Below are positions 271-18,166 of a stretch of DNA of 18,924 nt, piece after piece; positions within the stretch are counted from its first letter, which is position 1, and every line of letters starts with the position of its first letter. The translations under genes and the position numbers were made by a program. Location: contig JBBQEB010000069.1 of the NCBI GenBank assembly GCA_038320275.1, forward strand, positions 1 through 18,924. The letters run 5' to 3'. Below the pieces are notes generated by a model. It worked only from the letters and a program-made list of their open reading frames with translations, did not search any database and was not told the origin of the DNA. The DNA comes from Myxococcales bacterium. GTDB lineage: Bacteria > Myxococcota > Myxococcia > Myxococcales > Anaeromyxobacteraceae.

Positions 271-963
271 CTAGGCCCTGAGGAACGCCTGGGTGAGGTC
301 CTTCCAGGCCTGTCCCTGCATGACCATCGGCGCGGGGCCGCCCCGAGCCGCAAGGCCCGCCTGGCCCAGCGACGAAGCCAGGAAGCGGTCGAGCCTGTCC
401 GACTCCTCCCTCATCCAGGTGCGGGCGGAATCACCCACGGGCAGCGTGGACCAGCGCGCGTCGTCCGGCTCGAGCGCGCAGAGCCATCCCCGTCCGTAAC
501 CGTCCTCCTTGACGAGCGACGGGTCGCGCTCCACCTCGGCGTTCACCGCGACGACGGTGCCGTTCATCGGTGCGGCGATTCGCGCATCGACGCCGCCGCA
601 CGAGATGACCGCCACCACCTCGCCCTCGGTCACGCGCCGGCCCGGCTCGGGAAGCCGGACCGCCAGAGCCCAGGGGAGGAGCTCCTGCGCGACCCCGTCG
701 ATGCCGAGCCGGACCCTCGCCCCCTCGCGCTCCACCCAGGTGTGGCTGGCGGCATAGCGGACTCCCGGCTTGTAGAGCACGTGCCCCACGCGCCGGAGCC
801 CACGGGCAGCCGGACGCAGCGCCCGCCAGAGCCGCATGGCGCCCAGCGCAAGGAGCACGGGGGAGCCCAGGGCGAGGAGGACGAGCGCCACGAAGCCGAA
901 GCGCGCGAGGAGCCCGAAGGCGAAGGCCGCCACGCTCTGCAGGATGCCGATGATGGCGCTCAT
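271..963 (-). CDS. Membrane-anchored glycine cleavage H-protein-like (GcvH fold) protein lacking the lipoyl lysine
   Basis: 230 aa with a hydrophobic N-terminal ~45 aa. GcvH-like motifs: YAASHTWV, VRLGID..AQELL, LPEPG..V..GE, APMNGTVVAVN, DPSLV..DGYGRGWL. The ESVK lipoyl loop is replaced by SCGG. GGGAGG RBS upstream. Confidence 0.85.
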   Translation of the reverse strand: MSAIIGILQSVAAFAFGLLARFGFVALVLLALGSPVLLALGAMRLWRALRPAARGLRRVGHVLYKPGVRYAASHTWVEREGARVRLGIDGVAQELLPWALAVRLPEPGRRVTEGEVVAVISCGGVDARIAAPMNGTVVAVNAEVERDPSLVKEDGYGRGWLCALEPDDARWSTLPVGDSARTWMREESDRLDRFLASSLGQAGLAARGGPAPMVMQGQAWKDLTQAFLRA

Positions 964-982
964 GGTGTCCCCCTCCCGTTGG

Positions 983-1324
983 CTACTTGTGGCACATGTC
1001 GCAGGAGTCGAGCGCGAAGGCCGTCTTGCCGTGGCACGCGCCGCAGGCGGCGCCCTTTTCCATGGTGGCGTGGACGATCGCCTCGCCGGACGCCGTGCTG
1101 CCGGGCTGCAGCGACTTGAAGGAGCTCGGGTGACAGACGAGGCAGTTGGGCTTCTTCGCGTCCACGTGGCTCGCGTGGCTGAACGTCACCTTGCCCGGGC
1201 TCCCCTCACCCGGGAAGACGTAGTCGGCCGGGAGCCGCTGCAGCGGGCCCCCCGCATCCGCCGCGACGGACACGAGGAGCGCCGCCACCGCAGCGGCCAG
1301 GCGCGCCGCCCGCGCGCGGGTCAT
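983..1324 (-). CDS. Periplasmic triheme cytochrome c, c7/c3 family
   Basis: Signal peptide ending ADA. Three CxxCH motifs (CLVCH, CGACH, CDMCH). VTFSHASH and IVH supply distal His ligands. ATGA overlap with the upstream gene. Confidence 0.92.
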   Translation of the reverse strand: MTRARAARLAAAVAALLVSVAADAGGPLQRLPADYVFPGEGSPGKVTFSHASHVDAKKPNCLVCHPSSFKSLQPGSTASGEAIVHATMEKGAACGACHGKTAFALDSCDMCHK

Positions 1325-1497
1325 GACGCCCTCTCTGCGTGGTGGGCCGGGCCGGCCTTCACGGTGGGGACGCTGCCTGGCGCCTTGGCACCCATGACCC
1401 AGCGCCAGTAGCCGACGAAGAGGATGAGATAGGCGACGGCGAGGAGGTACTCGACGACCTTTGCTCCGTACAGATTGAGGAACTCGTTCTCGTACAT
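1321..1497 (-). CDS. Small single-pass membrane protein (58 aa), HmcD-like accessory subunit
   Basis: MYENEFLNLYGAKVVEYLLAVAYLILFVGYWRWVMG... has one TM helix. GGGAG RBS precedes ATG 1497, 10 nt after the NrfD-family stop. Its stop overlaps the cytochrome start. The ORF track start at 1590 lies inside the NrfD gene, so it was shortened. Confidence 0.75.
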   Translation of the reverse strand: MYENEFLNLYGAKVVEYLLAVAYLILFVGYWRWVMGAKAPGSVPTVKAGPAHHAERAS

Positions 1498-1507
1498 GGC
1501 GTTCTCC

Positions 1508-2737
1508 CTACGCGTCGTGCGCTTCTGCGAAGCGCGGGTCTTCGGACATGATCGGCATCCGGTTGGCGATCCACTTGAAGAGAACCACACCCAGCGTGAT
1601 GAGCGTCACCGAGACGGTGATCTCCATCCACGTCGGCACGTAGTGGTTGGGGCGATTCCAGTTGTAGGCGATGACGGAGACGTTGAGCCGGTTGAGGATG
1701 ATGCCGGCCACCGCCAGCACCGCGCCCCAGCGGACGAACTCGATCTTGCCGTGGCGCGCGCCGTACCCGTAGAGGAGCGACGGGACCAGCACGAAGCCGA
1801 CGATCTCGAGGAGGAACCACAGGCCCCAGCCGGTGAAGAGCAGGTTCCAGTGCCGCCCCTCGGCGACGCCCTGGAGCTTGAGGAAGAAGTAGGCGAAGAG
1901 GGCGATGGAGCCGGCCTTGCCGAGGCCGATCTGCAGCTTGTCCATGTCGACGTGCTCGCCGGAGATGCGGTGCTGGAAGAGGCGGTGCGAGAGCGTGCCC
2001 TCGGCGATCACCATCGAGATTCCGGCGCAGATGGCCGAGATGAAGAAGAAGATGAAGATGTAGGGCGAGTACCAGAGCGGGTGGAGCTTGGCGGGGGCGA
2101 TGAGGAACAGCGAGCCGAGCGCCGACTGGTGCATGGTCGAGAAGACGACCGACAGCACGGTGAGCCCGAGCATGCACTTCGAGAGCGTGTCGTGCGCCTT
2201 GCGCCATCCCAGCCAGGCGAAGGCGGGCACGAGGAACTCGAGCGTGAGCACGGTCGTGTAGCACATGACGCACCAGGCGATCTCGAACAGCGCGGACGCG
2301 CTGCCGTGGTACCGGATGGCCATGATCATGTTCCACGGCTTGCCCAGGTCGGCGAGCAACCCGAACACCGCCAGCAGGTAGCCGATGAAGGCGGTGAGGA
2401 TCGCGGGCCGCACGATGGGGTGGTACTCGTGCATGCCGAACAGGTGAACCGCGGAGCCGAGCGTGAAGCCGCCCGCGGCGAGCACCACGCCGGTCATCAT
2501 GTCGAAGCCGATCCAGATGCCCCACGGCTGGATCTGGGAGAGGTTGGTGGTGGCGCCGAGCCCGGCGGCGAACCGGTAGATCAGCACCGGCAGGCCGAAG
2601 GCGAGGATGACCGCCGCGAGCGCGTTCCAGGGGGTGACGAGCGAGCGGGCGTAGGTGCGGGCGCCCATGCCGAGGAAGAGCTTCTCGTTCATCCAGTTGG
2701 GCCGCGGGGCAGCAACGGCGATGGCTTGGCTATTCAT
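1508..2737 (-). CDS. NrfD/PsrC-family integral membrane quinol-interacting subunit (HybB/HmcC-like)
   Basis: 409 aa with about 10 TM segments. Motifs PWGIWIGFD...GVVLAAGGF, RPAILTAF.GY, DLGKPW, S.LFE...C...Y.TVL.LEF, STMHQSALGSLFLIAP.KLHPLWYS and NRLNVS. Confidence 0.92.
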   Translation of the reverse strand: MNSQAIAVAAPRPNWMNEKLFLGMGARTYARSLVTPWNALAAVILAFGLPVLIYRFAAGLGATTNLSQIQPWGIWIGFDMMTGVVLAAGGFTLGSAVHLFGMHEYHPIVRPAILTAFIGYLLAVFGLLADLGKPWNMIMAIRYHGSASALFEIAWCVMCYTTVLTLEFLVPAFAWLGWRKAHDTLSKCMLGLTVLSVVFSTMHQSALGSLFLIAPAKLHPLWYSPYIFIFFFISAICAGISMVIAEGTLSHRLFQHRISGEHVDMDKLQIGLGKAGSIALFAYFFLKLQGVAEGRHWNLLFTGWGLWFLLEIVGFVLVPSLLYGYGARHGKIEFVRWGAVLAVAGIILNRLNVSVIAYNWNRPNHYVPTWMEITVSVTLITLGVVLFKWIANRMPIMSEDPRFAEAHDA

Positions 2738-3704
2738 GGCTGCTCCGGTTGTCCTCGGTCGCGGGGGGGGGGATGGCGGGGGTGGTGGTGGCGGGCGGTA
2801 CGGACGGACCGTGCGGGTGGCCGTTCGCGGCCTGGTCCCGGCCGCGCTTCGAGAAGGCGTACAGCCCCATCAGCAGCGGGGGCCAGAGCGTCATGACGAA
2901 CGGCGGAGCGCTGAGCGCGCCCTGCACCTTGTCCGGGTAAGCCTCGTCGCGGACCTTGCGCAGGCCGAGCTTCTCGAAGGGGACGTCCGAGATGTAGAGC
3001 CAGTCGGTGCCGCCGGCTTCGTGCTCGCCGTAGACGTGGTGGATGTACTTGTCGGGGGTGCGGTACACGCGCATCTTCGCGAGCTCGAGCAGCGCGGAGC
3101 GCTTGCCGAACATGAGCGCGCCGGTGGGGCACACCTGGGCGCACGCCGGCTTCTTGCCGTCGGCCTGGCGCGACGCACAGAAGGTGCACTTGCGGACGAG
3201 CGGCGCGAGCTTGTCGTACTGGTACTTGGGGATCTCGAAGGGGCAGGCCACCATGCAGTAGCGGCAGCCCATGCAGCGATCGCCGCGGTAGATGACCGGG
3301 CCCGAGGGCTGCTTGTCGAGCGCGCGCACCGGGCAGGCGGAGGCGCAGGCGGGCTCGATGCAGTGCATGCACTGCCGCTTCGCGAACCGGTCCTCGCCGT
3401 CGCGTCCCTTTTCCGTCGCCTGGTTCACGACGGTGAACTGCTCCGGGCCGGTGTCCCGGCGCGTCTTGTAGACCGCGTCGTCCGACGGTGGGGGAGCGAG
3501 CTGGTTCGACTCGGCGCAGGCGCCCTCGCACGCGCGGCAGCCGGCGCAGAGGGTGGTGTCCACCAGCATGGCGTTCTCGTTCTCGCCGCGCGTGTCGAGC
3601 GACTCCGAGCCCTCGTGGGCGAGCGCCGGCTTCGCCTTCAGGGCGACGAGCGCGGTGCCTGCGACGCCCGCCGCCTGAAGGAACCCTCTGCGACTGATCT
3701 TCAT
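2730..3704 (-). CDS. Tat-exported 4x[4Fe-4S] electron-transfer subunit (HybA/HmcB-like) with C-terminal membrane anchor
   Basis: SRRGFLQ twin-arginine signal. Four Cys groups: CAGCRACEGAC, CMHCIEPACASACP, CMGCRYCMVACP, CTFC...PACAQVCP. YGEHEAGGT motif. Hydrophobic C-terminal helix. Confidence 0.93.
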   Translation of the reverse strand: MKISRRGFLQAAGVAGTALVALKAKPALAHEGSESLDTRGENENAMLVDTTLCAGCRACEGACAESNQLAPPPSDDAVYKTRRDTGPEQFTVVNQATEKGRDGEDRFAKRQCMHCIEPACASACPVRALDKQPSGPVIYRGDRCMGCRYCMVACPFEIPKYQYDKLAPLVRKCTFCASRQADGKKPACAQVCPTGALMFGKRSALLELAKMRVYRTPDKYIHHVYGEHEAGGTDWLYISDVPFEKLGLRKVRDEAYPDKVQGALSAPPFVMTLWPPLLMGLYAFSKRGRDQAANGHPHGPSVPPATTTPAIPPPATEDNRSSHE

Positions 3705-3742
3705 GGATGACTCCGTGAGCGTTGCGGAAAAGGCCGTCGGGG

Positions 3743-3814
3743 CTACCGGCTGGAGAAGGACAGGAACGCGAGGAATGCTGCCGCGATGAGGCTGAGCGGG
3801 AATGCGAGGATCAT
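3743..3814 (-). CDS. Putative 23-aa hydrophobic peptide
   Basis: MILAFPLSLIAAAFLAFLSFSSR. Its ATG (3814) overlaps the TGA of the upstream gene (ATGA), with purine-rich AAGGAAGAGG just upstream. It fills the gap before the Fe-S gene. Confidence 0.45.
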   Translation of the reverse strand: MILAFPLSLIAAAFLAFLSFSSR

Positions 3815-4029
3815 GGCCCTCTTCCTTTCGGTGCCGCGTGGGACTCCACTTCCATCTCGCGCACGACGCGACCGAGCCGGCCCGACACCTCGTCGAAGAC
3901 GGAGCAGCTGCGGAAGGCCTCGCCGTCGCATCGGCTCTCGGTGGAGAGCTGATCCGAGGGGACGAGCTTCTTGACCGGGTAGGCCCGGCAGAAGACCATC
4001 GTGACTTCGGTGAGGTAGGGACAGCTCAT
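3811..4029 (-). CDS. Small four-cysteine protein (72 aa), function unknown, probable metal or Fe-S binder
   Basis: MSCPYLTEVTMVFCRAYPVKK...SRCDGEAFRSCSVF, with spacing C-x10-C-x19-C-x7-C. GGAGG RBS at 4040-4036, 6 nt before ATG 4029. No signal peptide. Confidence 0.75.
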   Translation of the reverse strand: MSCPYLTEVTMVFCRAYPVKKLVPSDQLSTESRCDGEAFRSCSVFDEVSGRLGRVVREMEVESHAAPKGRGP

Positions 4030-4053
4030 CGTGCGCCTCCACAGCACTTCCTT

Positions 4054-4070
4054 TCCACGCGCCGGGCCAA
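4054..4070 (-). promoter_or_regulatory. Putative sigma54 (-24/-12) promoter of the redox operon
   Basis: Minus strand TTGGCCCGGCGCGTGGA versus consensus TGGCACG-N4-TTGC. GG-N10 spacing is correct but -12 is GG rather than GC. It sits just upstream of the first RBS, next to a sigma54 activator gene. Confidence 0.5.
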
Positions 4071-4092
4071 CATGAAGGTCGTGCTCAAAGAT

Positions 4093-4108
4093 TCTCAAGC
4101 GCTTGAAT
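4093..4108. promoter_or_regulatory. Putative IHF binding site
   Basis: Palindromic core TCAAGCGCTTGA (4095-4106). One mismatch to WATCAANNNNTTR on either strand. Lies between the promoter and the palindromic boxes. Confidence 0.4.
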
Positions 4109-4126
4109 TCGCAGCGGATTGCTCGC

Positions 4127-4265
4127 CGTCGAATTCCTCGACGCCCCCCACTTCGGCCCTGGATCCGTCGAGAATCTCGACGACCGTCCCGGCCGGGGTC
4201 ATCGCAAGAGGCTGGAATTATGGATGATTCGGTGAGTTAAGGGCTCAGCGTCGAGAAACTCGGCG
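4127..4265. promoter_or_regulatory. Three CGTCGA-N5-TCGACG palindromes, putative upstream activator sequences
   Basis: CGTCGA-ATTCC-TCGACG (4127-4143), CGTCGA-GAATC-TCGACG (4166-4182), CGTCGA-GAAAC-TCGGCG (4249-4265). Confidence 0.7.
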
Positions 4266-4286
4266 AGCGATGGAATGTTTTACACC

Positions 4287-5687
4287 CTAGCGGGGGCCAG
4301 AGCCTTCGTCTTCGGCCCGGCGAAGCTGATACCGCTTCATCTTGTTGTAGAGGGTCATCCGGTCGATCCCGAGCACGCGGGCTGCCTGGGTGACGTTCCC
4401 ACCGAGCGAAGCCAGCACCTTCGCGACGTGCCGCTTCTCGAGCTGCTCGAGGGTCTGTGGCTCGTCGTCGGAAGGGGCGGCGCCCGCCGGAGCCGGCTTC
4501 GGGCCGGCAGACGCGAGGCCAAGGTCCGCGAGCTGAACCACCCTGCCCTTCGCCACCACCGCGCCCCGCTCGAGCACGTTCCGCAACTCGCGGACGTTGC
4601 CCGGCCATCCATGCGCGACCAGGGCCGCCATGGCGTCCGGCGAGACGGCCTCGACGGGCCGGCCGAGCTCCGTCGTGAGCCGCGCCAGGAAGTGCTGCAC
4701 CAGGAACGGGATGTCCTCTGGGCGCTCGCGCAGCGGGGGCAGCCGGATGGGGATGACGTCGAGCCGGTAATAAAGGTCTTCGCGGAAGCTGCCGCTCGCC
4801 ACCGCCTTGGCGAGGTCCCGATTGGTGGCCGCGATCACCCGCACGTCCACGGCGATGCTCTCGGAGCCCCCCACCCGCTGCACCTTCCGCTCCTCGAGCA
4901 CGCGGAGCAGGTCGAGCTGGAGCTTGGTGGAGATGTCTCCCACCTCGTCGAGGAAGAGCGTCCCGCCGTGGGCGAGCTCGAACTTGCCCTTGCGCCGTGC
5001 CACGGCGCCGGTGAACGCCCCCCGCTCGTGGCCGAAGAGCTCGGACTCGAGCAGCGTCTCGGTGAGGGCGGCACAGGAGACCGCGACGAAGGCCTCCTTG
5101 GCGCGCGGGCTGGCCGCGTGGATGGCCCGGGCGAGGACCTCCTTGCCGCTTCCGCTCTCCCCCAGCACGAGGATGGTGGAGGCGGAGCGGGCCGCCACGG
5201 CCGCCAGGTCGAAGACCCGCTGCATGGCAGGGCTCTTCGAGACGAGGTCGTGGAAGCCGTATTCACGCTTGAGCGCCTGGCGAAGCTCGCGATTCTCGTG
5301 GACGAGCGCCTGCTGCGAGGCGATGCGCTGCACCAGCGCGGAGAGCTCCTCCGGGTCGAAGGGCTTCACGAGGTAGTCGTAGGCGCCAAGCTTCATCGCG
5401 TGGACCGCGGTGTCCACCGTGGCGTAGGCGGTCATGAGGACGAACACCGCGTCAGGTCGGGCCCGCCGACCCTCCTCCAGGACTTGCAGCCCGTCCACGC
5501 CGGGCATCTTGAGGTCGACGATGACGATGGCCCACGGCTCGGCCGTGAGCCGCTCCAGCGCGACCCGCCCGTCGTGCGCGGTCTCGACCGTGTAGCCGTC
5601 CTTCTGCAGCCACCCGCAGAGCGATTCGCGGACGATCTCCTCGTCATCGACGACGAGGATCCTGACCTCGCTGCGCTCTCCGCTCAC
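4287..5687 (-). CDS. Sigma54-dependent response regulator (NtrC/AtoC family: REC-AAA+-HTH)
   Basis: ILVVDDE and DLKMPG receiver. GESGSGKE Walker A, ESELFGHERGAFTGA, LFLDEVG, FREDLYYRL, WPGNVREL, and a Fis-type HTH (GGNVTQAARVLGIDRMTLYNKMK). GTG start overlaps the kinase stop. Confidence 0.97.
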   Translation of the reverse strand: MSGERSEVRILVVDDEEIVRESLCGWLQKDGYTVETAHDGRVALERLTAEPWAIVIVDLKMPGVDGLQVLEEGRRARPDAVFVLMTAYATVDTAVHAMKLGAYDYLVKPFDPEELSALVQRIASQQALVHENRELRQALKREYGFHDLVSKSPAMQRVFDLAAVAARSASTILVLGESGSGKEVLARAIHAASPRAKEAFVAVSCAALTETLLESELFGHERGAFTGAVARRKGKFELAHGGTLFLDEVGDISTKLQLDLLRVLEERKVQRVGGSESIAVDVRVIAATNRDLAKAVASGSFREDLYYRLDVIPIRLPPLRERPEDIPFLVQHFLARLTTELGRPVEAVSPDAMAALVAHGWPGNVRELRNVLERGAVVAKGRVVQLADLGLASAGPKPAPAGAAPSDDEPQTLEQLEKRHVAKVLASLGGNVTQAARVLGIDRMTLYNKMKRYQLRRAEDEGSGPR

Positions 5688-7429
5688 AGCTTCACCTCGC
5701 CGGGGGCGGGGTCGACCTTGGCGACCTCAGGGGGGGGACTCATGCTCGGGATCCTGAGGAGGAAGGTGGTTCCCTTCCCGAGCTCACTCTCCACCTCGAT
5801 GGTCGCGCGGTGGCGCTGCACGATCCCGTACACCACCGAGAGGCCGAGCCCGGTGCCCTTCTCCTTGGTGGTGAAGAACGGATCGAAGATGTGCTGCAGG
5901 TGGTCCTTGGCGATGCCCGGGCCGGTGTCGGAGATGGCGAGCTCGGCCGCTCCGTCCGGCCCGACGCGGCTCTGGATGGTGAGCTTGCCACCTTTGGCCA
6001 TGGCCTGGCAGCCGTTCAGGGCCACGTTCACCACCGCCTGGCGGAGCTGCCCGAAGTCGGCCATGACGTGCGGAATGGAGGCTAGCCTCTTGTCGAGCGT
6101 GAGCCCCTGGATGGCGATCTGGTGCGCGATGAGCTGGAGCGCCTCCTCCACCACGCCGTTCAGGCTGACCTCCACCAGGGACAGGGGCCGGTCGCGGGCG
6201 AAGTCCAGCAAGTTCCGGACGATGGCACTGCACCGCTCCGTCTCGCGCTCGACCAGGGCGAGGTTCCGGATGAGGAGCTTCCGGGTGGGCTCGTCCGGCG
6301 CGCCGCCCTCCAGCGTCCGGATGACGAGCTTCGCGAAGGTGAGGATGCCCGCGAGCGGGTTGTTGATCTCGTGGGCGATGGACGCCGAGAGCCGTCCCAG
6401 GCTCGACAGCTTCTCCGATTGGACCAGCGCCGCCTGGGCCTTCCTGAGCTCGGAGGTGCGGTCCTCGACCTGCTTTTCGAGGCCTTGCATGAGGTCGCGC
6501 AGCTCACCTTCCGCCTGCCGCAGCGATCGGGTCATGTCGTTGAAGGATGCGGCGAGGAGGCCCAGCTCGCCGCGCGAGCCGATCTGGATCTGCGTGTCGA
6601 GCTGATCGCCGGCGACCCGGCGGGTCGCGTCGAGGAGGGCCTGCACCGGCCGCACCACCTGGAAACGCGCGAACACGAAGAAGAAGCCCGAGAGGACGAT
6701 CACCGCCACCGCGGTCAGGCCCAGGCTCGAGCGCCGGAAAGCGCTCACCTTGGCGTCCACCGGGGCGAGCGACAGGCTGACGTCGAGCAAGCCGAGGACG
6801 TCCTGGTTCGGGTCGTGGGCGTGGCACTCGGCGGTGAAGCAGCGCCGCTCGTTGCGGATGGGGGTGACGAGACCGAGCACCCGGTGGTCGTTGCGCTCGT
6901 AGAGCCGGGTGCGGGACAGCACGGAGGTGCCGGAGACCGCCTTTCCGTTCACGTGGCAGGGCTTGCAGCGCGCGTCGTCGAACCCGATGATCGTGCCGAC
7001 TCCGGCCCCGTCGGAGGAAAAAGCCACCCGCCCGTCCTTCGTGACCAGCCGGACGGTCTCGATGCCCTCCTGCCGGGCCACATCCCGCATGGTGTCGATG
7101 GCGTCGGCCTTGCGGTTCTCGAGCATGGCGCGCGTGGTCGCCTTCTCGATGGTGCTGCTGAAGAGCGCAGCTCCCGCGATCTGGCTCTCCAGGAGCTGAT
7201 CCGACATGCGGGCCTCGCCCAGCGCGAACATCGCGACGCCGGCGACCGCGAGCGCCATCGTCACGAAGAAAAGCTTCGTCTTGATGCGGTGCCGCCAGGG
7301 GATGATGCGCTCGAGCGGCGCCAGCGGGATCGGGCGTCCGAACGCCGGGGGGCGAGGCTGCTCTGCGGAGGGGTGGGGCGCCTGTGCGTCGGCGCTCGTT
7401 CCCTCCGGACGATCGTCCAGTTCTCCCAT
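5684..7429 (-). CDS. Membrane sensor histidine kinase with periplasmic heme-c motifs, HAMP, HisKA and HATPase domains
   Basis: Two TM helices flank a periplasmic domain containing CKPCH and CFTAECH. HAMP (ELGLLAASFNDMT), H-box AHEINNPL, N-box NGCQAM, DTGPGI, FDPFFTTK, GTGLGL. Exact start uncertain because of a Pro-rich N-terminus. Confidence 0.95.
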   Translation of the reverse strand: MGELDDRPEGTSADAQAPHPSAEQPRPPAFGRPIPLAPLERIIPWRHRIKTKLFFVTMALAVAGVAMFALGEARMSDQLLESQIAGAALFSSTIEKATTRAMLENRKADAIDTMRDVARQEGIETVRLVTKDGRVAFSSDGAGVGTIIGFDDARCKPCHVNGKAVSGTSVLSRTRLYERNDHRVLGLVTPIRNERRCFTAECHAHDPNQDVLGLLDVSLSLAPVDAKVSAFRRSSLGLTAVAVIVLSGFFFVFARFQVVRPVQALLDATRRVAGDQLDTQIQIGSRGELGLLAASFNDMTRSLRQAEGELRDLMQGLEKQVEDRTSELRKAQAALVQSEKLSSLGRLSASIAHEINNPLAGILTFAKLVIRTLEGGAPDEPTRKLLIRNLALVERETERCSAIVRNLLDFARDRPLSLVEVSLNGVVEEALQLIAHQIAIQGLTLDKRLASIPHVMADFGQLRQAVVNVALNGCQAMAKGGKLTIQSRVGPDGAAELAISDTGPGIAKDHLQHIFDPFFTTKEKGTGLGLSVVYGIVQRHRATIEVESELGKGTTFLLRIPSMSPPPEVAKVDPAPGEVKL

Positions 7430-7609: not shown

Positions 7610-8050
7610 TCAATGCTGGGGCATTCGACGGACGAGGCATTCGGCGGAGGCGGGGCAGAGGGTCTGGAGCTCCTCGGTGCGGCAGATCGTCTCGGGCACC
7701 TCGTCCCGGGACACGGTGTTGAAGCCCAGCAGGCCGAACCAGGCTGCCGCGGTGGTGGTCAGGACGAAGAGTCGCTCGACCCCCAGCTCCCGGGCGCGCC
7801 CGATGACCGTCGCATACAGGCGGCGGGCGAGCCCGCGGCCCCGCTGCTCGGGGGCCACCGCGAGCGATCGCAGGAGGGCGTCCGTCCCGTGAACCTCGAG
7901 CCCCAGCACCCCGACCATGCGTCCGTCGTCCCGCGCCACGGTGAACGTCTCGAGGTGCGGGGCGATGTCCTCGTGCGGCAGCCCCGCAGACGCCAGCAGC
8001 GCGGCGATCTCCGGGTGGTCCCTGTCCGAGGCGCGGGCGAAGTGCTCCAT
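7610..8050 (-). CDS. arsN2: GNAT N-acetyltransferase, ArsN2-like
   Basis: LLASAGLP, GLEVHG..ALLRSLAV.PEQRGRGLA, LTTTA..WF..LGF, and C-terminal LCPASA typical of ArsN2. Confidence 0.82.
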   Translation of the reverse strand: MEHFARASDRDHPEIAALLASAGLPHEDIAPHLETFTVARDDGRMVGVLGLEVHGTDALLRSLAVAPEQRGRGLARRLYATVIGRARELGVERLFVLTTTAAAWFGLLGFNTVSRDEVPETICRTEELQTLCPASAECLVRRMPQH

Positions 8051-8056
8051 GCGCTG

Positions 8057-8085
8057 AACCTACGAGGCCTGTGAAGAAGCGCCAA
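8057..8085 (-). promoter_or_regulatory. Putative sigma70 promoter giving a leaderless arsN2 mRNA
   Basis: TTGGCG (8085-8080), 17 nt, TAGGTT (8062-8057), 6 nt, ATG. No Shine-Dalgarno sequence. Confidence 0.5.
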
Positions 8086-8138
8086 GCACCACGTTCGCAC
8101 GTCAGGGAAGCCAGGGACGAACCTCGGGCTGCTCCCCA

Positions 8139-8555
8139 TCAGCGCCCCGGCTCCTCGCCCGGGTACTGGGGCGCGCCGTCGAGGATGTCGAACCACTCTG
8201 CCTTGGAGGCGACGTGGATGTGCGCCGCTGGGCGTGCCGCGAGCTTCGTGTCGAGCGCGCCGATGCGCAGCCGGACCACGCCCGGCTTGTCGTCGCGCCG
8301 GCTGAGGATGGGCGATCCGCAGCGGGGGCAGAAGCAGCGCCACTTGCCCGGCGACGAAGGGTACGAGGCGAGCACCTCCTCTCCCCGCAGGAAGCGAAAG
8401 CCCTCCGCGGGGACGGGCGCGTTCGTGGCGAAGGCCGTCCCCTGCGCCTTCCTGCACATGGTGCAGTGGCAGCAGACGACGGGGCCGAGCTCGGTTCGAA
8501 CCTCGTAAGCGATGGCGCCGCAGAGACAGCTCCCTCGCAGCATCTCGGTAATCAC
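8139..8555 (-). CDS. GFA/CENP-V family zinc-binding protein
   Basis: GSCLCGAI, CCHCTMCRK, SSPGKWRCFCPRCGS and HIHVASKAEW motifs. Start placed at GTG 8555 (AAGGAG 7 nt upstream). ATG 8543 is an alternative. Confidence 0.9.
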   Translation of the reverse strand: MITEMLRGSCLCGAIAYEVRTELGPVVCCHCTMCRKAQGTAFATNAPVPAEGFRFLRGEEVLASYPSSPGKWRCFCPRCGSPILSRRDDKPGVVRLRIGALDTKLAARPAAHIHVASKAEWFDILDGAPQYPGEEPGR

Positions 8556-8651
8556 GTTGCCGCTCCTTGGTACGAGTTGACGCAGCGCGCCGCGTTGACG
8601 CAATGCGCTAATTACGCGCGCCGGCTCCACTATCCTGGTTTGCCGCAGACG

Positions 8652-8680
8652 TTGACACACACCCTTCGTGCCCGCATCCT
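8652..8680 (+). promoter_or_regulatory. Putative sigma70 promoter of the TRAP operon
   Basis: Perfect TTGACA (8652-8657), 17 nt, CATCCT (8675-8680), about 70 nt before the dctP start. Confidence 0.55.
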
Positions 8681-8752
8681 CCTCCACCGCACCCCACCTT
8701 CGAGAGACGGCGCTCATCCGACGGGGCGCGTCCGCGCTCCGGGAGAACGACC

Positions 8753-9775
8753 ATGCCGGTCACACGCCGTCAGTTCGTGCTGGGCATCGCCGCCGTCCCT
8801 GCTGCTACGATGCTGGGCCGCGTCAGCGCCGCTGCGCCCCGCGCGCTCAAGATCTCCCACCAATTCCCCGGCGGGACCGCCGACCAGGGCGATTTCCGCG
8901 ACAGGCTCTGCCGGAAATTCGCCGCCGAGATCGAGAAGCGCAGCAACGGCGCGCTGAAGGGTGAGGTGTACGCGGGCTCGTCGCTCATGAAGACGAACGC
9001 CCAGTACAACGCCATGCGCCGCGGCGCGCTCGATTGCTCACTCTTGCCCATTTCCTACGCGGGTGGGGAGGTGCCCGAGTTCAACCTCGGGCTCATGCCC
9101 GGGCTCGTGACCTCGTACGAGCAGGGGGTGAAGTGGAAGGGGTCGGAAGCGGGCCAGGCCTTCGGGAGCGTGATGGCGGACAAGGGCCTCGTGGCGCTCT
9201 CCTGGGTCTGGCAGGCGGGCGGCGTGGCGAGCCGCGGCAACGCCATCATCGACCCGGAGGACTCGAAGGGCATGAAGGTCCGCGGCGGCAGCCGAGAGAT
9301 GGACATGGTCCTCAAGGCGGCGGGCGCCGCGGTCATCTCGCTTCCCTCCAACGAGGTGTACCAGGCCATGCAGACGGGCGCTCTCGACGCGGCGATGACC
9401 TCATCGACGAGCCTCATCTCCTTCCGGCTGGAGGAGGTGAGCAAGGCGCTCACCACCGGCCGTGGCAGGGCCTACTGGTTCATGTTCGAGCCACTCGTCA
9501 TCTCGCGGATCGTTTTCGAGAGCCTCCCCAAGGACCTGCAGGCCGTCGTGACCAGCGTGGGCTCCGAGCTGGAGAAGTTCGCTTACGACGGCGCCCGGGC
9601 GGACGACGACGCCATCGCCAAGATCTACGAGAAGGCTGGCGCGAAGGTGCACGACCTGTCGGCCGCCACCGTTGCCAAGTGGCAGGCGATCGCGCGCGAC
9701 ACTGCCTGGAAGGACTACGCCGCGAAGAGCCCGCGGTGCGCGAAGCTGCTCGCGCTGACGGAGAAGACGTTGTGA
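8753..9775 (+). CDS. dctP: TRAP transporter substrate-binding protein DctP
   Basis: Tat-like signal TRRQFV. FAAEIEKRSNG.LK.EVY..SSL, GMKVRG (conserved carboxylate-binding Arg), EVYQAMQTGALDA. GGGAG RBS. Confidence 0.93.
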   Translation: MPVTRRQFVLGIAAVPAATMLGRVSAAAPRALKISHQFPGGTADQGDFRDRLCRKFAAEIEKRSNGALKGEVYAGSSLMKTNAQYNAMRRGALDCSLLPISYAGGEVPEFNLGLMPGLVTSYEQGVKWKGSEAGQAFGSVMADKGLVALSWVWQAGGVASRGNAIIDPEDSKGMKVRGGSREMDMVLKAAGAAVISLPSNEVYQAMQTGALDAAMTSSTSLISFRLEEVSKALTTGRGRAYWFMFEPLVISRIVFESLPKDLQAVVTSVGSELEKFAYDGARADDDAIAKIYEKAGAKVHDLSAATVAKWQAIARDTAWKDYAAKSPRCAKLLALTEKTL

Positions 9776-10341
9776 GGGCGGAGGGCGGGCTTGGACAGCT
9801 GCCACTCCAGAACGAGAGCCCCGCGCCGCGTCCCCGTGCCGAGAGCCGCCTGGGGCTCGCCGTCCGCGCCATCGCCTACCTGAACGACAAGCTGCTCGTC
9901 CTGTCGATGATCGCGCTCGTGCTCGGCGGCGCCATCCTGTCGCTCGGGGTGCTCCTGCGCTACTTCCTCAAGATCCCAACCGACTGGCAGGACGAGGCCT
10001 CGGTCTTCCTCCTCGTGGGAGCGACCTTCCTGAGCGGCGCGTACGTGCAATCGTACCGCGGACACGTCGCCATCGAGGCGTTCGCGCACCTTCTTCCGCC
10101 GGGCGTGAACCGGGTGCGGATGTTCCTCGTCGATCTCATCGCCGCGGCCTTCTGCGGGTTCTTCGCCTGGAAGTCCTGGACGCTCTTCCACGAGGCGCTC
10201 GTCGATCACCAGACCACCACCTCGACCTGGTCTCCCCCGCTCGCGATTCCGTACGGCTGCATGTCGCTCGGGATGACGCTCCTGACGGTGCAGATCGCCC
10301 TGCAGCTGGCGACCCGCTTCACGAAGCACGAGCGGCCGTGA
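9772..10341 (+). CDS. dctQ: TRAP transporter small permease DctQ
   Basis: Four TM helices. VLLRYF..PTDWQDE and GHVAIE motifs. GTG at 9772 overlaps the dctP stop (GTGA). The 9034 start in the ORF track is an overextension. Confidence 0.88.
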   Translation: MRAEGGLGQLPLQNESPAPRPRAESRLGLAVRAIAYLNDKLLVLSMIALVLGGAILSLGVLLRYFLKIPTDWQDEASVFLLVGATFLSGAYVQSYRGHVAIEAFAHLLPPGVNRVRMFLVDLIAAAFCGFFAWKSWTLFHEALVDHQTTTSTWSPPLAIPYGCMSLGMTLLTVQIALQLATRFTKHERP

Positions 10342-11687
10342 GCACCGCGACCATCGGCATGCTCTACGGAGCAGGCACCCTCTTCGTCATGTTCCTGGGG
10401 GTGCCGATCGCGTTCGCGCTAGGGTCCGTCGCCGTCGTCTTCATGTACTTCTTCATGCCGGCCTCCTCCCTCGACACGGTGACTCAGAACGTTTACGAGG
10501 AGATGGCGAGCATCACCCTCCTCTCCATCCCCCTCTTCATCCTGAAGGGCGCCGCGATCGGGAAGTCGCCGGCCGGGAAGGACCTCTACAGCGCAATCCA
10601 CGTGTGGGTGCAGAAGATCCCCGGCGGGCTCGGGATCGCGAACGTCTTCGCCTGCGCGCTCTTCGCCGCGATGGCTGGTTCGAGCCCCGCAACCTGCTCC
10701 GCCATCGGGACCGCCGGCATCCCCGAGATGCGCATGCGCGGTTACTCGGGGCGATTCGCGGCGGGCATCATCGCGGCCGGCGGAACGCTCGGCATCCTCC
10801 TTCCGCCCTCCATCACGATGATCCTGTACGCAGTCGCCTCCGAGCAGTCCCTGGGCAGGCTTTTTCTCGCGGGGATCGGCCCCGCCACGCTGCTCGTCCT
10901 CCTCTTCTCCGGTTACGCGGTGTACCGGTACAAGAAGGAGTACCAGCTGGCGCGGCTCGCGTACGACGCGGGTGGCGACAAGTCGGCCTACCTCAACGAC
11001 GAGACGTTCACGCTGCGCGAAAAGCTGAGGATCCTCCCGCGCGTGCTTCCCTTCGTCATCCTCCTCACCGGCGTCATGATCGCGCTCTACGGCGGCTATG
11101 CCACGCCCTCCGAGACGGCCGGCCTCGGCGCGCTGCTCGCGTTCGTGCTCATCGCCATCGTCTACAAGATCTGGCGCCCCCGGGACATCAAGCCCATCCT
11201 GGCGAGCACGCTGAAGGACTCGACCATGCTGATGTTCATCATCGGCATGTCGCTCCTCTACTCGTACGTGATGAGTTATCTGCACATCAGCCAATCGGCG
11301 GCGGAGTGGGTGGTACACTTCGGAGTCTCGAAGTGGGTGCTGCTCGCCGCCATCCTGGTCATGGTGGTGGTCCTCGGCTTCTTCCTGCCGCCCGTCTCCA
11401 TCATCCTCATGACCGCACCCATCATCCTCCCGCCGCTCCGCGCCGCCGGTTTCGACCTCGTCTGGTTTGGCGTGGTGATGACCATCGTCATGGAGATGGG
11501 GCTCATCCACCCGCCGGTCGGGCTCAACATCTTCGTCATCAAGAACGTGGCCCCCGACATCCCGCTCCACGAGGTGGTGTGGGGGGTGGTGCCCTTCGTC
11601 GGGCTCATGATCGTGGCCGTACTGCTTCTGTGCTGGTTCCCCGGGATCGCCACCGGGCTCCCGTCCCTGGTCATGACACGGAACTGA
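10338..11687 (+). CDS. dctM: TRAP transporter large permease DctM
   Basis: GVPIAFALG, LLSIPLFIL, GSSPAT, GGTLGILLPPSI, TPSETA and IHPPVGLN motifs. About 11-12 TM segments. Confidence 0.95.
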   Translation: MSTATIGMLYGAGTLFVMFLGVPIAFALGSVAVVFMYFFMPASSLDTVTQNVYEEMASITLLSIPLFILKGAAIGKSPAGKDLYSAIHVWVQKIPGGLGIANVFACALFAAMAGSSPATCSAIGTAGIPEMRMRGYSGRFAAGIIAAGGTLGILLPPSITMILYAVASEQSLGRLFLAGIGPATLLVLLFSGYAVYRYKKEYQLARLAYDAGGDKSAYLNDETFTLREKLRILPRVLPFVILLTGVMIALYGGYATPSETAGLGALLAFVLIAIVYKIWRPRDIKPILASTLKDSTMLMFIIGMSLLYSYVMSYLHISQSAAEWVVHFGVSKWVLLAAILVMVVVLGFFLPPVSIILMTAPIILPPLRAAGFDLVWFGVVMTIVMEMGLIHPPVGLNIFVIKNVAPDIPLHEVVWGVVPFVGLMIVAVLLLCWFPGIATGLPSLVMTRN

Positions 11688-11697
11688 GCGAGGAACG

Positions 11698-12882
11698 ATG
11701 GCCCCTACTTTGCGTGTGCTCGACCTCACCCAGGCCATGGCCGGGCCGTACTGCGCGATGCTGCTCGGCGACTTCGGCGCCGAGGTCATCAAGATCGAGC
11801 GGCCCGGCACCGGAGACCAGGCCCGCGGCTGGGGCCCGCCCTTCACGCACGGAGAGTCCACCTACTTCCTCTCCACCAACCGCAACAAGCGCTCCCTCAC
11901 GCTGAACCTCGACGCGCCCGAGGGCGTGGAGGTGCTGCACGCCCTCGCCCGCGAGGCGGACGTGTTCCTCGTGAACCAGCCCTCGCTGGCCTCGCTGGTG
12001 AAGCGGCGCATCGACTACGACAGCCTGCGCGCGCTGAACCCGCGGCTCGTCTACTGCTCCATCACTGGGTACGGCTTCACCGGACCCAAGGCGGAATGGC
12101 CCGGCTACGACCTCATCGCTCAGGGCGAGGCGGGCCTCATGAGCTTCACCGGCGCCGAGGGCGGTGAGCCGATGAAGTACCCCATCCCCATCGCCGATAT
12201 CACCACCGGTGTCTATGCGGCCTTGGGCGTGCTCGCCGCCCTGAACGCCCGCCACGAGACCGGGCGGGGGCAGTTCATCGACCTCGCGCTCTTCGACGCC
12301 CAGATGACCTGGCTCAGCCACGTGGGGAGCGATTACCTCAACGTGAAGGCGACCCCGCGCCGGATGGGAAACGCGCACGCCAGCATCGTCCCGTACCAGG
12401 TCGTCCGCGCGAAGAACGCCCACATGACCATCGCGGTGGGGACGGAGGGCCTCTGGAAGCGCTTCTGCGCCGTGGTGGGCATCGAGGACACCCTCGGCGC
12501 GGACCCGCGCTTCGCCACCAACCGGCTGCGCAACGAGAACCGGGCCGTCCTGATGCCCCTCCTGCAGGACATCCTCGTGCAGCGCACCGCCGAGGAGTGG
12601 CTTCCCCTCCTGGAAAAAGCTGACATCCCATGCGGCCGGATCAACACCGTCGAGCAGGCGCTCGAGGACCCCCAGGCGCTGGCCCGCGGCACGGTGGTGG
12701 AGCTCGCGCACCCGCTGCTCGGCGTCGCGCGCAGCGTGGGCAACCCGGTGAAGCTGAGTGAGACCGCCGTCACGTACCGCAGGCACCCGCCGACCCTTGG
12801 CGAGCACACCTCCGAAATTCTTCGGGAGCTGGGGCATTCCGACGCGCACATCGCCGACCTCCGCGAGAAGGGCGTGGTGTAG
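11698..12882 (+). CDS. Family III CoA-transferase (CaiB/BaiF/Frc family)
   Basis: RVLDLTQAMAGPYC..LLGDFGAEVIKIE, NRNKRS, NPRLVYCSITGYG.TGP, GYD, PIADITTG (catalytic Asp), PPTLGEHT. Confidence 0.95.
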   Translation: MAPTLRVLDLTQAMAGPYCAMLLGDFGAEVIKIERPGTGDQARGWGPPFTHGESTYFLSTNRNKRSLTLNLDAPEGVEVLHALAREADVFLVNQPSLASLVKRRIDYDSLRALNPRLVYCSITGYGFTGPKAEWPGYDLIAQGEAGLMSFTGAEGGEPMKYPIPIADITTGVYAALGVLAALNARHETGRGQFIDLALFDAQMTWLSHVGSDYLNVKATPRRMGNAHASIVPYQVVRAKNAHMTIAVGTEGLWKRFCAVVGIEDTLGADPRFATNRLRNENRAVLMPLLQDILVQRTAEEWLPLLEKADIPCGRINTVEQALEDPQALARGTVVELAHPLLGVARSVGNPVKLSETAVTYRRHPPTLGEHTSEILRELGHSDAHIADLREKGVV

Positions 12883-12985
12883 CGGGGGAGTGGAGCACCG
12901 GATCCGCGCCGTGAGGGTGCCGGAGCTGCCGCGCAGAAGGCGCGCGGAGACGGGCCGCTGAGGCGGAGCGGCGCTAACATCCGCC

Positions 12986-13849
12986 GTGCCCCACGCTCCT
13001 CGCGCCATCCTCCTCATCCGTTGCCCCGACGGGCCAGGCATCGTGGCAGCCGTCTCCGGCTTCCTCTTCGCGCACGGCGCGAACATCACCGATCTCGACC
13101 AGCACTCGACGGACAGCCCCCCCGCGTCTTACTTCATGCGGCTCGAGCTGCAGACGGACGCGCTCGACGTGCCGCTCGACACCCTGCGCGAGCGCTTCGA
13201 CGAGGCGATCGCGCGGCCGTTCGGGATGGCCTGGCGGCTCGCTGCGGCGGACGAGCGCAAGAAGGTCGCCGTCCTGGTCTCCCGGCACGACCACGCCCTC
13301 TTGGAGCTCCTGTGGGAGTGGCGGCGCGGCGAGCTCCGCGCCGACCTCACCTGCGTCGTCTCCAACCACCCCGACCTGCGCGAGGCGGTGGAAGGATTCG
13401 GCGTACCCTTTCACCACATCCCGAACGGCGCCGGGGTGCGCGGCGAGGCGGAGGCGCGCATGCTCGAGCTCCTGGAGGGGCGCGCCGACCTTTTGGTCCT
13501 CGCGCGCTACATGCAGATCCTCTCTCCGGCCTTCCTGGCGCGCTTCCCCGGTCGGACGCTCAACATCCACCACTCCTTCCTGCCCGCCTTCGCCGGGGCC
13601 GATCCGTACCGACAGGCCTGGGAGCGCGGCGTGAAGATCGTCGGCGCGACCGCGCACTACGTGACGGAGGAGCTCGACGCCGGCCCCATCATCGAGCAGG
13701 ACGTCGCGCGCGTCTCCCACCGGCAGGACGTGGAGGACCTCCGCCGCATGGGGCGGGACCTCGAGCGGCGCGTGCTCGCGCGCGCGGTGAAGTGGCACCT
13801 CGAGGACCGGGTGATCGTCCACGGCAACAAGACCGTGGTGTTCGCGTGA
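12986..13849 (+). CDS. purU: Formyltetrahydrofolate deformylase
   Basis: N-terminal ACT domain (CPDGPGIVAAVS), VVSNHPDL, LARYMQILS, NIHHSFLPAF.GA.PY.QA..RGVK..GATAHYVT.ELDAGPIIEQD, NKTVVF. Confidence 0.97.
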   Translation: MPHAPRAILLIRCPDGPGIVAAVSGFLFAHGANITDLDQHSTDSPPASYFMRLELQTDALDVPLDTLRERFDEAIARPFGMAWRLAAADERKKVAVLVSRHDHALLELLWEWRRGELRADLTCVVSNHPDLREAVEGFGVPFHHIPNGAGVRGEAEARMLELLEGRADLLVLARYMQILSPAFLARFPGRTLNIHHSFLPAFAGADPYRQAWERGVKIVGATAHYVTEELDAGPIIEQDVARVSHRQDVEDLRRMGRDLERRVLARAVKWHLEDRVIVHGNKTVVFA

Positions 13850-13924
13850 GGGTCCGCGGGCGTCGTCGACGCGGGCCCACAGCGGGTCGGGTCGCGAGGG
13901 TCGGGAGTGCCGACAGCCCAGGCG

Positions 13925-15040
13925 TCACAGCGTCCGCCGGAACAGGGCTGCGGCCGCGATCATCGAGAAGGCGCTGAAGGCGGCGAGCACGGCGAGGTCG
14001 CCAGCCAGCGCGCGGAGCCCCACCCCCTGCACCAGGAGCGCCCGCAGCGCGTGCACGGCGTAGGTGAAGGGATCGACCGCTGCGATGACCCGCATCCAGG
14101 GGGGAAACGCCTGCGTCGGGTAGACCGCACCGCTGGGAAAAAAGAGGAGCGTGGAGAGGAGGCCTGAGGCGATGCGCGGGATCATCGGGTCGCTCACGCG
14201 CGCCATGAGCATGAACATCAGGCTGACGAGCGCGAGCGCCGTCATCGCGACCACGAGGGCGAGCTCGAGGAGCCGCACTGGCGCGAAGGGGTGAGGGATC
14301 CCGGCGAGCATCGAGCCCACCACCGTGAGGCCCATGCCGGCGATGAAGGCTTTGATGGCCCCCGAGATGTTGAAGCCCGCTACCAGCTCGAGCCTGGTCA
14401 CTGGGGTGACGAGATATCCCTCGTGGAGGCCGCGCGACTTGTCGTCGATGAAGCTGAAGGCGCCGCCGATCATGACCATGGTGAAGATGGCGAGGACCAC
14501 CGACCCGGGGAGCAGATACTGGATGTAGGGGACGTAGGGAAAGAGCTCCACCACGTCGAGCGTCACCTTGTCGGAGACGCGCTTGGTCGAGGCGCGCGGC
14601 GCATCGAAGGCGGCGACCAGCGCGGAGAAGGTGTTCCCGAGGGTCCCCGCGACGAAGCGATCGGTGTTGTTCTGGATCAGGGCAACGCGCGGGTCCTCCT
14701 TCGCGAGTACCCGGCGCGAGAAGCCAGGAGGGATGGTGATGACGCCGTCGACCTTCCCGCTCCGCAGATCGGCGAGCGCGCCTCCCTCGTCCGCATACGG
14801 GAGCGTCACGAAGGTGCGCGCGTTGGCGGCGACGGCGTTGGTGAGGGCCCGAAGCCTCACCGCCGACACGCCATGGTCGTGGTCGACGAGCGCCACCCGG
14901 AGATCTTGCAGGTTGCCGCCGTACGCGTAACCCAGCACCACGAGTTGAAGCAGCGGCCCGACGATGGTCACCACGATGAGGAGGGGATTGCGGCGAAAGC
15001 GCCTCAACTCGCGCTCGACCAGCGCCCAGACACGGTGCAT
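13925..15040 (-). CDS. ABC-2 type exporter permease
   Basis: N-terminal TM, periplasmic domain (ALVDHD), YLLPG, five further TM segments, FPSGAVYP..FP.W and DPFTYAV. Confidence 0.92.
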   Translation of the reverse strand: MHRVWALVERELRRFRRNPLLIVVTIVGPLLQLVVLGYAYGGNLQDLRVALVDHDHGVSAVRLRALTNAVAANARTFVTLPYADEGGALADLRSGKVDGVITIPPGFSRRVLAKEDPRVALIQNNTDRFVAGTLGNTFSALVAAFDAPRASTKRVSDKVTLDVVELFPYVPYIQYLLPGSVVLAIFTMVMIGGAFSFIDDKSRGLHEGYLVTPVTRLELVAGFNISGAIKAFIAGMGLTVVGSMLAGIPHPFAPVRLLELALVVAMTALALVSLMFMLMARVSDPMIPRIASGLLSTLLFFPSGAVYPTQAFPPWMRVIAAVDPFTYAVHALRALLVQGVGLRALAGDLAVLAAFSAFSMIAAAALFRRTL

Positions 15041-15053
15041 GGGTGCTCCTCGG

Positions 15054-17095: not shown

Positions 17096-17118
17096 CGGGA
17101 CCCTCGGCAGTGAGCAGA

Positions 17119-17151
17119 ATGAAACGACGTTTGTGACGTACAGTGTTCAAT
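17119..17151. promoter_or_regulatory. Putative TetR operator(s) upstream of the efflux operon
   Basis: GACGTAC-AGT-GTTCAAT (17135-17151) resembles the perfect palindrome upstream of the TetR gene. A weaker AAAC-GAC-GTTT core is adjacent (17122-17132). Confidence 0.55.
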
Positions 17152-17226
17152 AGCGGGCGAACCGCGAGACGACGCATGCGCGAACTGGATCGGTCTGCGC
17201 GCCGCGCCCGGCAGCGCACGGAGGGG

Positions 17227-17973: not shown

Positions 17974-17981
17974 GGAAAGAA

Positions 17982-18010
17982 CAGGTATCGCGACGAACGC
18001 AGTTCGTCAA
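17982..18010 (-). promoter_or_regulatory. TetR gene promoter with embedded palindromic operator
   Basis: Perfect inverted repeat GACGAAC-GCA-GTTCGTC (17992-18008). It overlaps TTGACG (18010-18005), 17 nt, TACCTG (17987-17982), which ends 8 nt before the ATG. Confidence 0.65.
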
Positions 18011-18166
18011 GGGCCGCAGGCGCTCCCCAGCAATCACCGCAGCCTGGCGGTGGCTGCGCTCGGCGCGAGCGGGCGGAGGGAGCGCGCTGTCGCGCCTGCC
18101 CTGAGAGTTTGCGGAAATCTCCTCCTATCGCCGGGCAACGGCTGAGGAGAAGGGGGCTCGGCGACG

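Follow-up and report, generated by a model that had tools for sequence, protein, structure and literature searches.

This report concerns nine adjacent genes on the minus strand of an 18,924-nt contig stretch (C69; this whole stretch is called the window) from an Anaeromyxobacteraceae assembly (G000; 4.10 Mb, 343 contigs, 90.7% complete). They encode a haem-motif sensor kinase, a sigma-54 response regulator, a protein with four cysteines (four-Cys protein), a 23-amino-acid (aa) peptide, a Tat-signal iron-sulfur (Fe-S) protein, an NrfD-family membrane protein, a probable HmcD homologue, a trihaem c7 cytochrome, and a protein with the GcvH fold. The genes belong to a cassette that is real, conserved, and apparently unstudied. 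Its redox core is a known kind of module, and the window locus is likely, as judged from sequence comparison, a reduced form of the widespread cassette from which a protease (an archaemetzincin) and one GcvH-fold domain were lost. We consider it slightly more probable than otherwise that the cassette is a self-contained respiratory branch under haem-kinase control, with the GcvH-fold protein, the four-Cys protein, and the peptide as accessory parts. It would then be a candidate route by which quinones and cytochromes exchange electrons in a family that respires metals and nitrate. The cassette is found in at least five phyla, in soil and sediment bacteria, and cultured Anaeromyxobacter have it (L005, in part), which makes it testable.

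Conservation of the cassette

A scan of genome contigs for NrfD returned 151 stretches, 140 of which were confirmed; counts of loci refer to the best 80, which include many kin and several short contigs. A non-canonical GcvH-like gene was present in 61 of the 80 NrfD-anchored loci, a haem-motif kinase in 56, an archaemetzincin in 53, and a four-Cys gene in 15. Among the 61 loci with a GcvH-like gene, 48 had the haem kinase and 47 the protease. The neighbourhood search that the first-pass annotation, made from the sequence alone, had proposed as a check thus found a conserved arrangement, spread over Myxococcota, Acidobacteriota, Bacteroidota, Eisenbacteria, and Planctomycetota, and the nearest named loci were those of Anaeromyxobacteraceae. 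By layout, true Hmc-type operons accounted for 7 of the 80 loci (L021 verified by NCBIfam). The same annotation knew of no complex of this composition; likewise, no gene-for-gene match to a described complex, and no description of the cassette as a union with GcvH-fold protein, haem kinase, and archaemetzincin, was found in the literature searched, supplements not covered. Papers are cited here from the portions available, and the portions of PMC2330069 and bioRxiv 10.64898/2026.10.01.755906 do not mention the cassette.

The full gene order of the family is kinase, archaemetzincin, regulator, four-Cys protein, peptide, Fe-S protein, NrfD, a fusion of HmcD with a first GcvH-fold domain (GcvH1), c7, a second GcvH-fold protein (GcvH2), a nine-haem cytochrome, and a cytochrome b. 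The window's genus lacks both the protease and the GcvH1 domain (L091 and L093-L096, where the region is covered), and in a quick tree its NrfD clade is nested among full-layout loci. The locus is therefore likely a derived, stable reduction. The possibility of a decaying copy was ruled out, as the GcvH-fold gene, which lacks the DGG loop motif described below, is intact in 7 of 10 genus relatives at 61-71% identity.

An unnamed family of membrane proteins of about 140 aa was also seen near the cassette (L002:12352-12777, L004:19210-20134, L119, L124, and G000:C7:45017-45436), and the GcvH-like proteins P0098 and P0157 each have a hydrophobic segment like it fused to them.

The redox core

The proposal of an Hmc/HybAB-like core was sustained. 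The window NrfD fell within a 32-row clade with true HmcC (SH-aLRT 100, quick tree), and the best NCBIfam matches of the core proteins were HmcB, HmcC, and HmcD, with scores below the cut-offs: 327 bits against 420 for the Fe-S protein as HmcB, 463 against 550 for NrfD as HmcC (245 for HybB), and 14.8 against 34 for the small open reading frame (ORF) as HmcD (NF045712). This 58-aa ORF was found at an E-value of 5e-6 among 5,727 proteins with a local HmcD profile built from eight small ORFs adjoining hmcC-like genes, four of them above the NCBIfam cut-off. In most family loci its homologue is the N-terminal anchor of the GcvH1 domain, which the window's genus lacks. None of the locus genes encodes HmcA, HmcE, or HmcF. 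The Fe-S protein, of the four-cluster type with 16 cysteines, adjoins NrfD, and the c7 cytochrome passed the thresholds of PF14522 (43.3 > 24.8) and TIGR04257 (61.1 > 40) and fell below that of a Geobacter-specific model (18.3 < 120). Hydrogenase-free modules of Fe-S protein, HybB-like protein, and cytochrome are already in print (bioRxiv 10.1101/2023.11.02.564894; PMC11434368), and the core is for that reason assigned to a known kind.

Window NrfD keeps the equivalents (R110, Y120, E167, and H203) of HybB R89, Y99, E148, and H184, at each of which a replacement lowers activity (PMC8076601). Of six residues on the quinone side of Escherichia coli HybB, it also keeps five (D79, D130, S148, E152, and S209). 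HmcC and HybB have been proposed to be electrogenic, perhaps favouring quinone reduction, with the direction for HmcC called uncertain (PMC6303296); quinol to c7, as inferred in the first-pass annotation, is therefore one of two candidate directions. A second Fe-S/NrfD pair of the assembly (G000:C44:14595-16800) lies beside a two-component system, with no hydrogenase genes adjoining.

The GcvH-fold protein and the archaemetzincin

The GcvH-like protein had been described as lacking the lipoyl site, and we agree: Gly124 occupies the position of the lipoyl lysine in the window protein, and across the family a lysine stands in that column in 8 of 259 sequences and an ExxK motif in 2 of 259. The canonical gcvH of the assembly is part of gcvTHP on contig C117. 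A model of the GcvH1 domain of a relative (predicted local distance difference test [pLDDT] score, 91.7) matched pea H-protein (1dxm) with a Z-score of 19.4 and a root-mean-square deviation of 1.5 over 129 residues, and it adds C-terminal helices and a low-confidence loop (57) that holds the DGG motif. Hairpin residue Cys122 was considered as a substitute for lipoate and ruled out, since cysteine occurs there in 21 of 57 members of the subtype. P0004 had no solved relative by phmmer.

DGG is present in 143 of 150 best representatives and in all 47 loci that have both the GcvH-like gene and the protease. Full-length copies without DGG were confined to the window's genus (8) and a second, Thermoanaerobaculia-type lineage (7 loci, with one more broken). 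The operon-type protease was found in none of the 11 genus genomes, in none of 4 from the second lineage, and in 22 of the 23 non-genus relatives that have GcvH-like protein and kinase; the losses of protease and DGG lie on two separate branches of the tree. These two co-losses suggest that the protease acts on the DGG loop, and we tentatively propose, with rather less than even confidence, that the archaemetzincin docks at the loop or cleaves it. The HExxH-X5-H motif is kept in all 67 protease copies. Elsewhere in the assembly, an archaemetzincin-like gene without HExxH (G000:C11:245-799) is likely a non-proteolytic Myxococcota type. Membrane proteins of 75-76 aa that have DGG and no GcvH barrel sit between two Fe-S/NrfD operons in three loci (L029:8170-8400, L031:8183-8413, and L032:8204-8431).

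Of 50 relatives outside the genus, 23 have the GcvH-like protein (E < 1e-30), and exactly these 23 have the kinase (E <= 1e-46), which speaks for a tie to signalling. A family search with a threshold of E <= 1e-30 gave 1,373 matches, canonical GcvH among them, so that more than a thousand clusters of lipoate-free GcvH-fold proteins come into view; the longer GcvH-like proteins had one match among 8,000 candidates scored. Other architectures included a third, soluble type with cysteine-rich N-terminal repeats (L039:11218-11979, L046, L033, and P0213) and a 1,391-aa protein (P0088) in which an FAD oxidase and CCG Fe-S domains are joined to three GcvH domains. The protein of the cassette may be an adaptor, its barrel and anchor associating with membrane complexes and its loop serving the protease. 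Both it and the four-Cys protein look accessory or regulatory rather than electron-carrying.

Sensor kinase, promoter, and small proteins

The sensor of the kinase is likely of haem type, with one or two c haems, as judged from alignments and a model. CX4CH occurs in 75 of 75 kinase sequences, CX2CH in 60 of 75, and Met102 in 72 of 72; CX4CH and the invariant methionine align with the haem motif and methionine of GSU0935 (3b42; E 5e-5). The modelled sensor domain (pLDDT 91.6) has a Cache fold, its best matches being WalK and GSU0935, and the first-pass description of a heme-motif kinase stands, with two motifs and a haem motif before the last strand. Members of the sCache_heme family have been described as nitric oxide (NO) sensors (PMC12889525), and two Anaeromyxobacter sensors with two haem motifs are known (PMC3831638). 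By analogy, a gas such as NO is as plausible a signal as redox state. A second kinase with two haem motifs faces the cassette from downstream in eight loci (L002, L009, L011, L012, L023, L114, L115, and L123).

A -24/-12 element precedes the four-Cys gene in all 33 upstream regions when a loose pattern is used (shuffles: mean 1.3, maximum 5) and in 19 of the 33 when the strict consensus is required (shuffle mean 0.05). The palindrome GTNGA-N5-TCNAC, with one mismatch allowed, was found in 33 of 33 regions at 67 sites (shuffles: mean 2.1, maximum 7). No sigma-70 site was found, and a genome-wide scan for promoter and palindrome yielded numerous loose matches, among which no second target stood out clearly. 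The conserved elements favour the earlier suggestion that the regulator controls the operon, to which it would bind at these sites.

The four-Cys protein and the peptide are real, with 72 homologues (besides the query) and 21 look-alikes in related loci (loose pattern), respectively. C3, C14, C34, and C42 are invariant in 30 of 30 aligned four-Cys homologues, for which Pfam, NCBIfam, and the PDB gave no match and the Atlas gave unnamed clusters. The gene is first in the operon and confined to kinase/regulator-type loci (15 of 80, all with kinase), which suits a metal-binding feedback factor. A link to the cysteine-rich N-terminus of the third GcvH-like type was ruled out (hhalign probability 0.9%). 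Peptide homologues also precede stand-alone HmcD-GcvH genes.

Catalytic and periplasmic partners

As the first-pass annotation had held, no catalytic subunit is encoded: none was found in the cassette, either in the window or in the 61 GcvH-like loci. Homologous loci do not normally carry one; in 4 of the 61 the fetched flanks contain a molybdoenzyme or NiFe subunit, which in each case is separated from NrfD by about 5.5-9 kb and is not part of the cassette. The locus has no hybO or hybC, and no match to PF00374 or to FeFe hydrogenase was found in the assembly.

The claim that c7 is the only periplasmic partner is probably wrong. Of 24 relative loci fetched, 18 have a nine-haem cytochrome and an FdnI-like cytochrome b 3' of the cassette (5 of the 7 from the genus, a sixth being cut at its start, and 13 of the 17 from the family), and C69 ends too early to tell. 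Neither gene was found in the assembly, in which best matches were 27-33%. C69 ends 270 nt past the GcvH-fold gene, and contig C288 starts inside a kinase gene (76% identity) that relatives have downstream of the pair, followed by a regulator (83%); the pair therefore probably sits in the assembly gap between the two contigs. Contigs from one DNA run cover the stretch, differ from it at two single bases, and give no sequence beyond the end of C69.

Proposed mechanism and alternatives

In the proposed respiratory branch, the sensor domain would bind one or two c haems and report either the redox state of the periplasm or a gas, NO for example. Once phosphorylated, the regulator would bind three palindromes and open the sigma-54 promoter that precedes the four-Cys gene. 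NrfD would pair with the four-cluster Fe-S protein, exported by the Tat route, to react with quinone reversibly and with proton coupling, as QrcD/HybB do, and c7 would link this pair to other periplasmic cytochromes, the simplest being the neighbouring CbcL-like nine-haem/cytochrome b pair. The GcvH-fold protein would be a cytoplasm-facing membrane adaptor, with the flexible DGG loop of the full cassette as docking or cleavage site for the archaemetzincin; the window's genus would have lost protease and DGG and kept a protease-independent form. The products of the GcvH-fold, four-Cys, and peptide genes would be accessory or feedback parts and not carry electrons. A bolder version, possible but doubtful, is a novel control circuit in which lipoate-free GcvH-fold adaptors link the NrfD complex to the two-haem kinase and the archaemetzincin resets the link via the DGG loop, the window's genus being a natural protease-free variant. 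If true, it would provide the first substrate for bacterial archaemetzincins and a cofactor-free signalling role for the GcvH fold. The cassette offers a ready promoter and operator motif, an HmcD tied to a soluble domain, and, for an orphan family of proteases, one specific candidate target that can be tested.

The core residues, the HmcC clade, the recurrence of the cassette, the conserved promoter elements, the haem-type sensor, and the co-loss were counted for the respiratory branch, as were the occurrence of the redox genes without signalling genes (L015 and L019) and, for the part given to the GcvH-fold protein, its receiver-domain fusions, its co-occurrence with the kinase, and genome G056 (described below). 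Several observations weigh against it. The co-loss comprises two events only, in incomplete genomes, and the promoter patterns were picked after viewing the same sequences, from kin that are not independent, so that their conservation is overstated. The equivalent of HybB Glu155 is Ala174 in the window NrfD and Glu in 97 of 97 relatives, genus included; proton coupling may thus be weakened. In many Acidobacteriota loci the Fe-S protein has no Tat signal and no cytochrome is encoded, which suits sensing better than bulk electron flow. In L044 and L047-L080 the Tat leader is missing, many of these loci are without a cytochrome, and in some the CX2CH motif of the kinase is lost. The many Acidobacteriota loci with no cytochrome other than the kinase sensor within 10 kb favour a reading in which Fe-S protein, NrfD, and c7 are an input arm that passes the redox state of the quinone pool to the kinase haems with little bulk flow; the frequency of the kinase (56 of 80 loci) agrees, and its second haem motif would suit electron entry. 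However, the same redox genes occur without signalling genes beside large multihaem cytochromes (L015 and L019), relative genome G056 keeps kinase, protease, regulator, four-Cys protein, and GcvH-fold protein with no NrfD match, and the NrfD channel residues are conserved, and we regard an input arm as unlikely.

Also against the respiratory branch as drawn, four Thermoanaerobaculia-type genomes have a GcvH-fold gene directly before Fe-S/NrfD and no kinase or protease match, in a search in which a control genome gave both. This places the barrel with the redox complex and not with signalling, and would fit a subunit of the NrfD complex that has a structural role or serves assembly and sits on its cytoplasmic side, in the position of HmcE/HmcF in Hmc, the kinase being only a co-located regulator. 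So would the fusion of HmcD to a GcvH-fold domain in most family loci, and P0143 (L061:11268-12461), in which a tetrahaem cytochrome is joined to an HmcD-like helix and a GcvH-fold domain, an arrangement that fixes the barrel on the cytoplasmic side. Yet relative genomes G015 and G031 have Fe-S protein, NrfD, HmcD, and c7 without any GcvH-like gene or kinase, the GcvH fold is fused to receiver domains in P0086 and P0156, stand-alone copies occur far from NrfD, and the hairpin has no conserved cofactor ligand; we find a purely structural role quite unlikely. Finally, the pair might be a spare HybA/HybB for a hydrogenase or formate dehydrogenase encoded elsewhere. NiFe large subunits are near-universal in relatives (all 10 from the genus and 35 of 36 from the family), their absence from a 90.7% complete assembly may be a gap, and periplasmic enzymes could feed c7 as with TpIc3 in Qrc (PMC6303296). 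But by coordinate comparison, 11 relatives have a separate NrfD paralogue, 32-37% identical, adjoining the hydrogenase gene, so the cassette pair is not needed as a hydrogenase anchor; the formate dehydrogenase-like genes of the assembly have their own Fe-S/membrane partners, and the HmcC score exceeds that of HybB. A spare pair is accordingly very unlikely.

Gene layout and neighbouring genes

All nine ORFs were present in the order claimed earlier, co-directional and close-packed from 7429 to 271. The spacings along the operon are -4, 257, -4, 38, -8, 10, -4, and 19 nt, with four overlapping stop/start pairs and a single 257-nt gap 5' of the four-Cys gene. Pfam and NCBIfam support the kinase, sigma-54 regulator, Tat Fe-S protein, NrfD, c7 cytochrome, and GcvH-fold assignments.

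Table 1. Genes and candidate control elements of the cassette in the window.
Feature	Position	Strand	Details
Sensor histidine kinase, 581 aa	5684..7429	-	2 transmembrane (TM) helices flank Cache-fold sensor, then HAMP, HisKA, HATPase_c
Kinase sensor motifs			CX2CH (155-159), CX4CH (197-203), Met102
NtrC-type sigma-54 response regulator, 466 aa	4287..5687	-	Receiver, AAA+ with GAFTGA, Fis helix-turn-helix
Candidate activator site 1	4250..4264		Palindrome GTNGA-N5-TCNAC
Candidate activator site 2	4167..4181		Palindrome
Candidate activator site 3	4128..4142		Palindrome
Sigma-54 -24/-12 like element	4054..4069	-	-12 box off consensus
Four-Cys protein, 72 aa	3811..4029	-	C-X10-C-X19-C-X7-C; no signal or TM helix
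Hydrophobic 23-aa peptide, conserved	3743..3814	-	
Tat-signal Fe-S protein, HmcB/HybA-like	2730..3704	-	16 Cys in four cluster motifs, hydrophobic C-tail
NrfD-family membrane protein, HmcC clade	1508..2737	-	
Probable HmcD homologue, 58 aa	1321..1497	-	Single TM
c7-type trihaem cytochrome, 113 aa	983..1324	-	Hydrophobic N-terminus, three CXXCH
Membrane-anchored GcvH-fold protein, 230 aa	271..963	-	No lipoyl Lys, no DGG loop motif

The neighbours at 7610-18892 of the window are, as we take them to be from reading the translations by eye, an acetyltransferase, a GFA-type protein, a TRAP transporter, a CoA transferase, PurU, ABC efflux genes, TetR, and a short-chain dehydrogenase. A PurU-like gene is also near the cassette in L015, L017, L019, and L093.

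Comparison with known systems

The cassette shares the hydrogenase-free three-part plan of the modules of tail-anchored Fe-S protein, HybB-like protein, and c-type cytochrome, Geobacter Cbc4 (CbcSTU) among them, the latter compared by description only. The modules of bioRxiv 10.1101/2023.11.02.564894 often have an octahaem partner and no conserved flanking genes, and the available portion of that preprint does not mention the GcvH-fold protein, kinase, or protease. HmcBCD of Desulfovibrio Hmc (and Nhc) has the order Tat Fe-S protein, NrfD, and small hydrophobic protein (HmcD, or in the window its probable homologue) in common with the window locus. Unlike Hmc, the locus has no 16-haem HmcA, HmcE, or HmcF and scores under the cut-offs, and has c7, GcvH-fold protein, four-Cys protein, and haem kinase where Hmc differs.

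The lipoyl carriers GcvH, LbpA, and GcvH-L have the fold of the relative's GcvH1 domain, as its match to 1dxm indicates; in contrast to them, the GcvH-fold proteins lack the lipoyl lysine and have an N-terminal membrane anchor, extra C-terminal helices, and a DGG loop. The window sensor has the Cache fold, the haem motif before the last strand, and the aligned methionine of the sCache_heme proteins GSU0582 and GSU0935, and differs from them in its CX4CH spacing, its extra CX2CH, and its kinase output. In Geobacter sulfurreducens, CbcL combines nine c haems with a b-cytochrome domain and has the c7 trihaem cytochrome PpcA as partner (PMC9129911). Unlike CbcL, the relatives' pair is split over two genes and was not seen in this assembly; the pair resembles CbcL in make-up, with nine CXXCH motifs and an FdnI-like b subunit.

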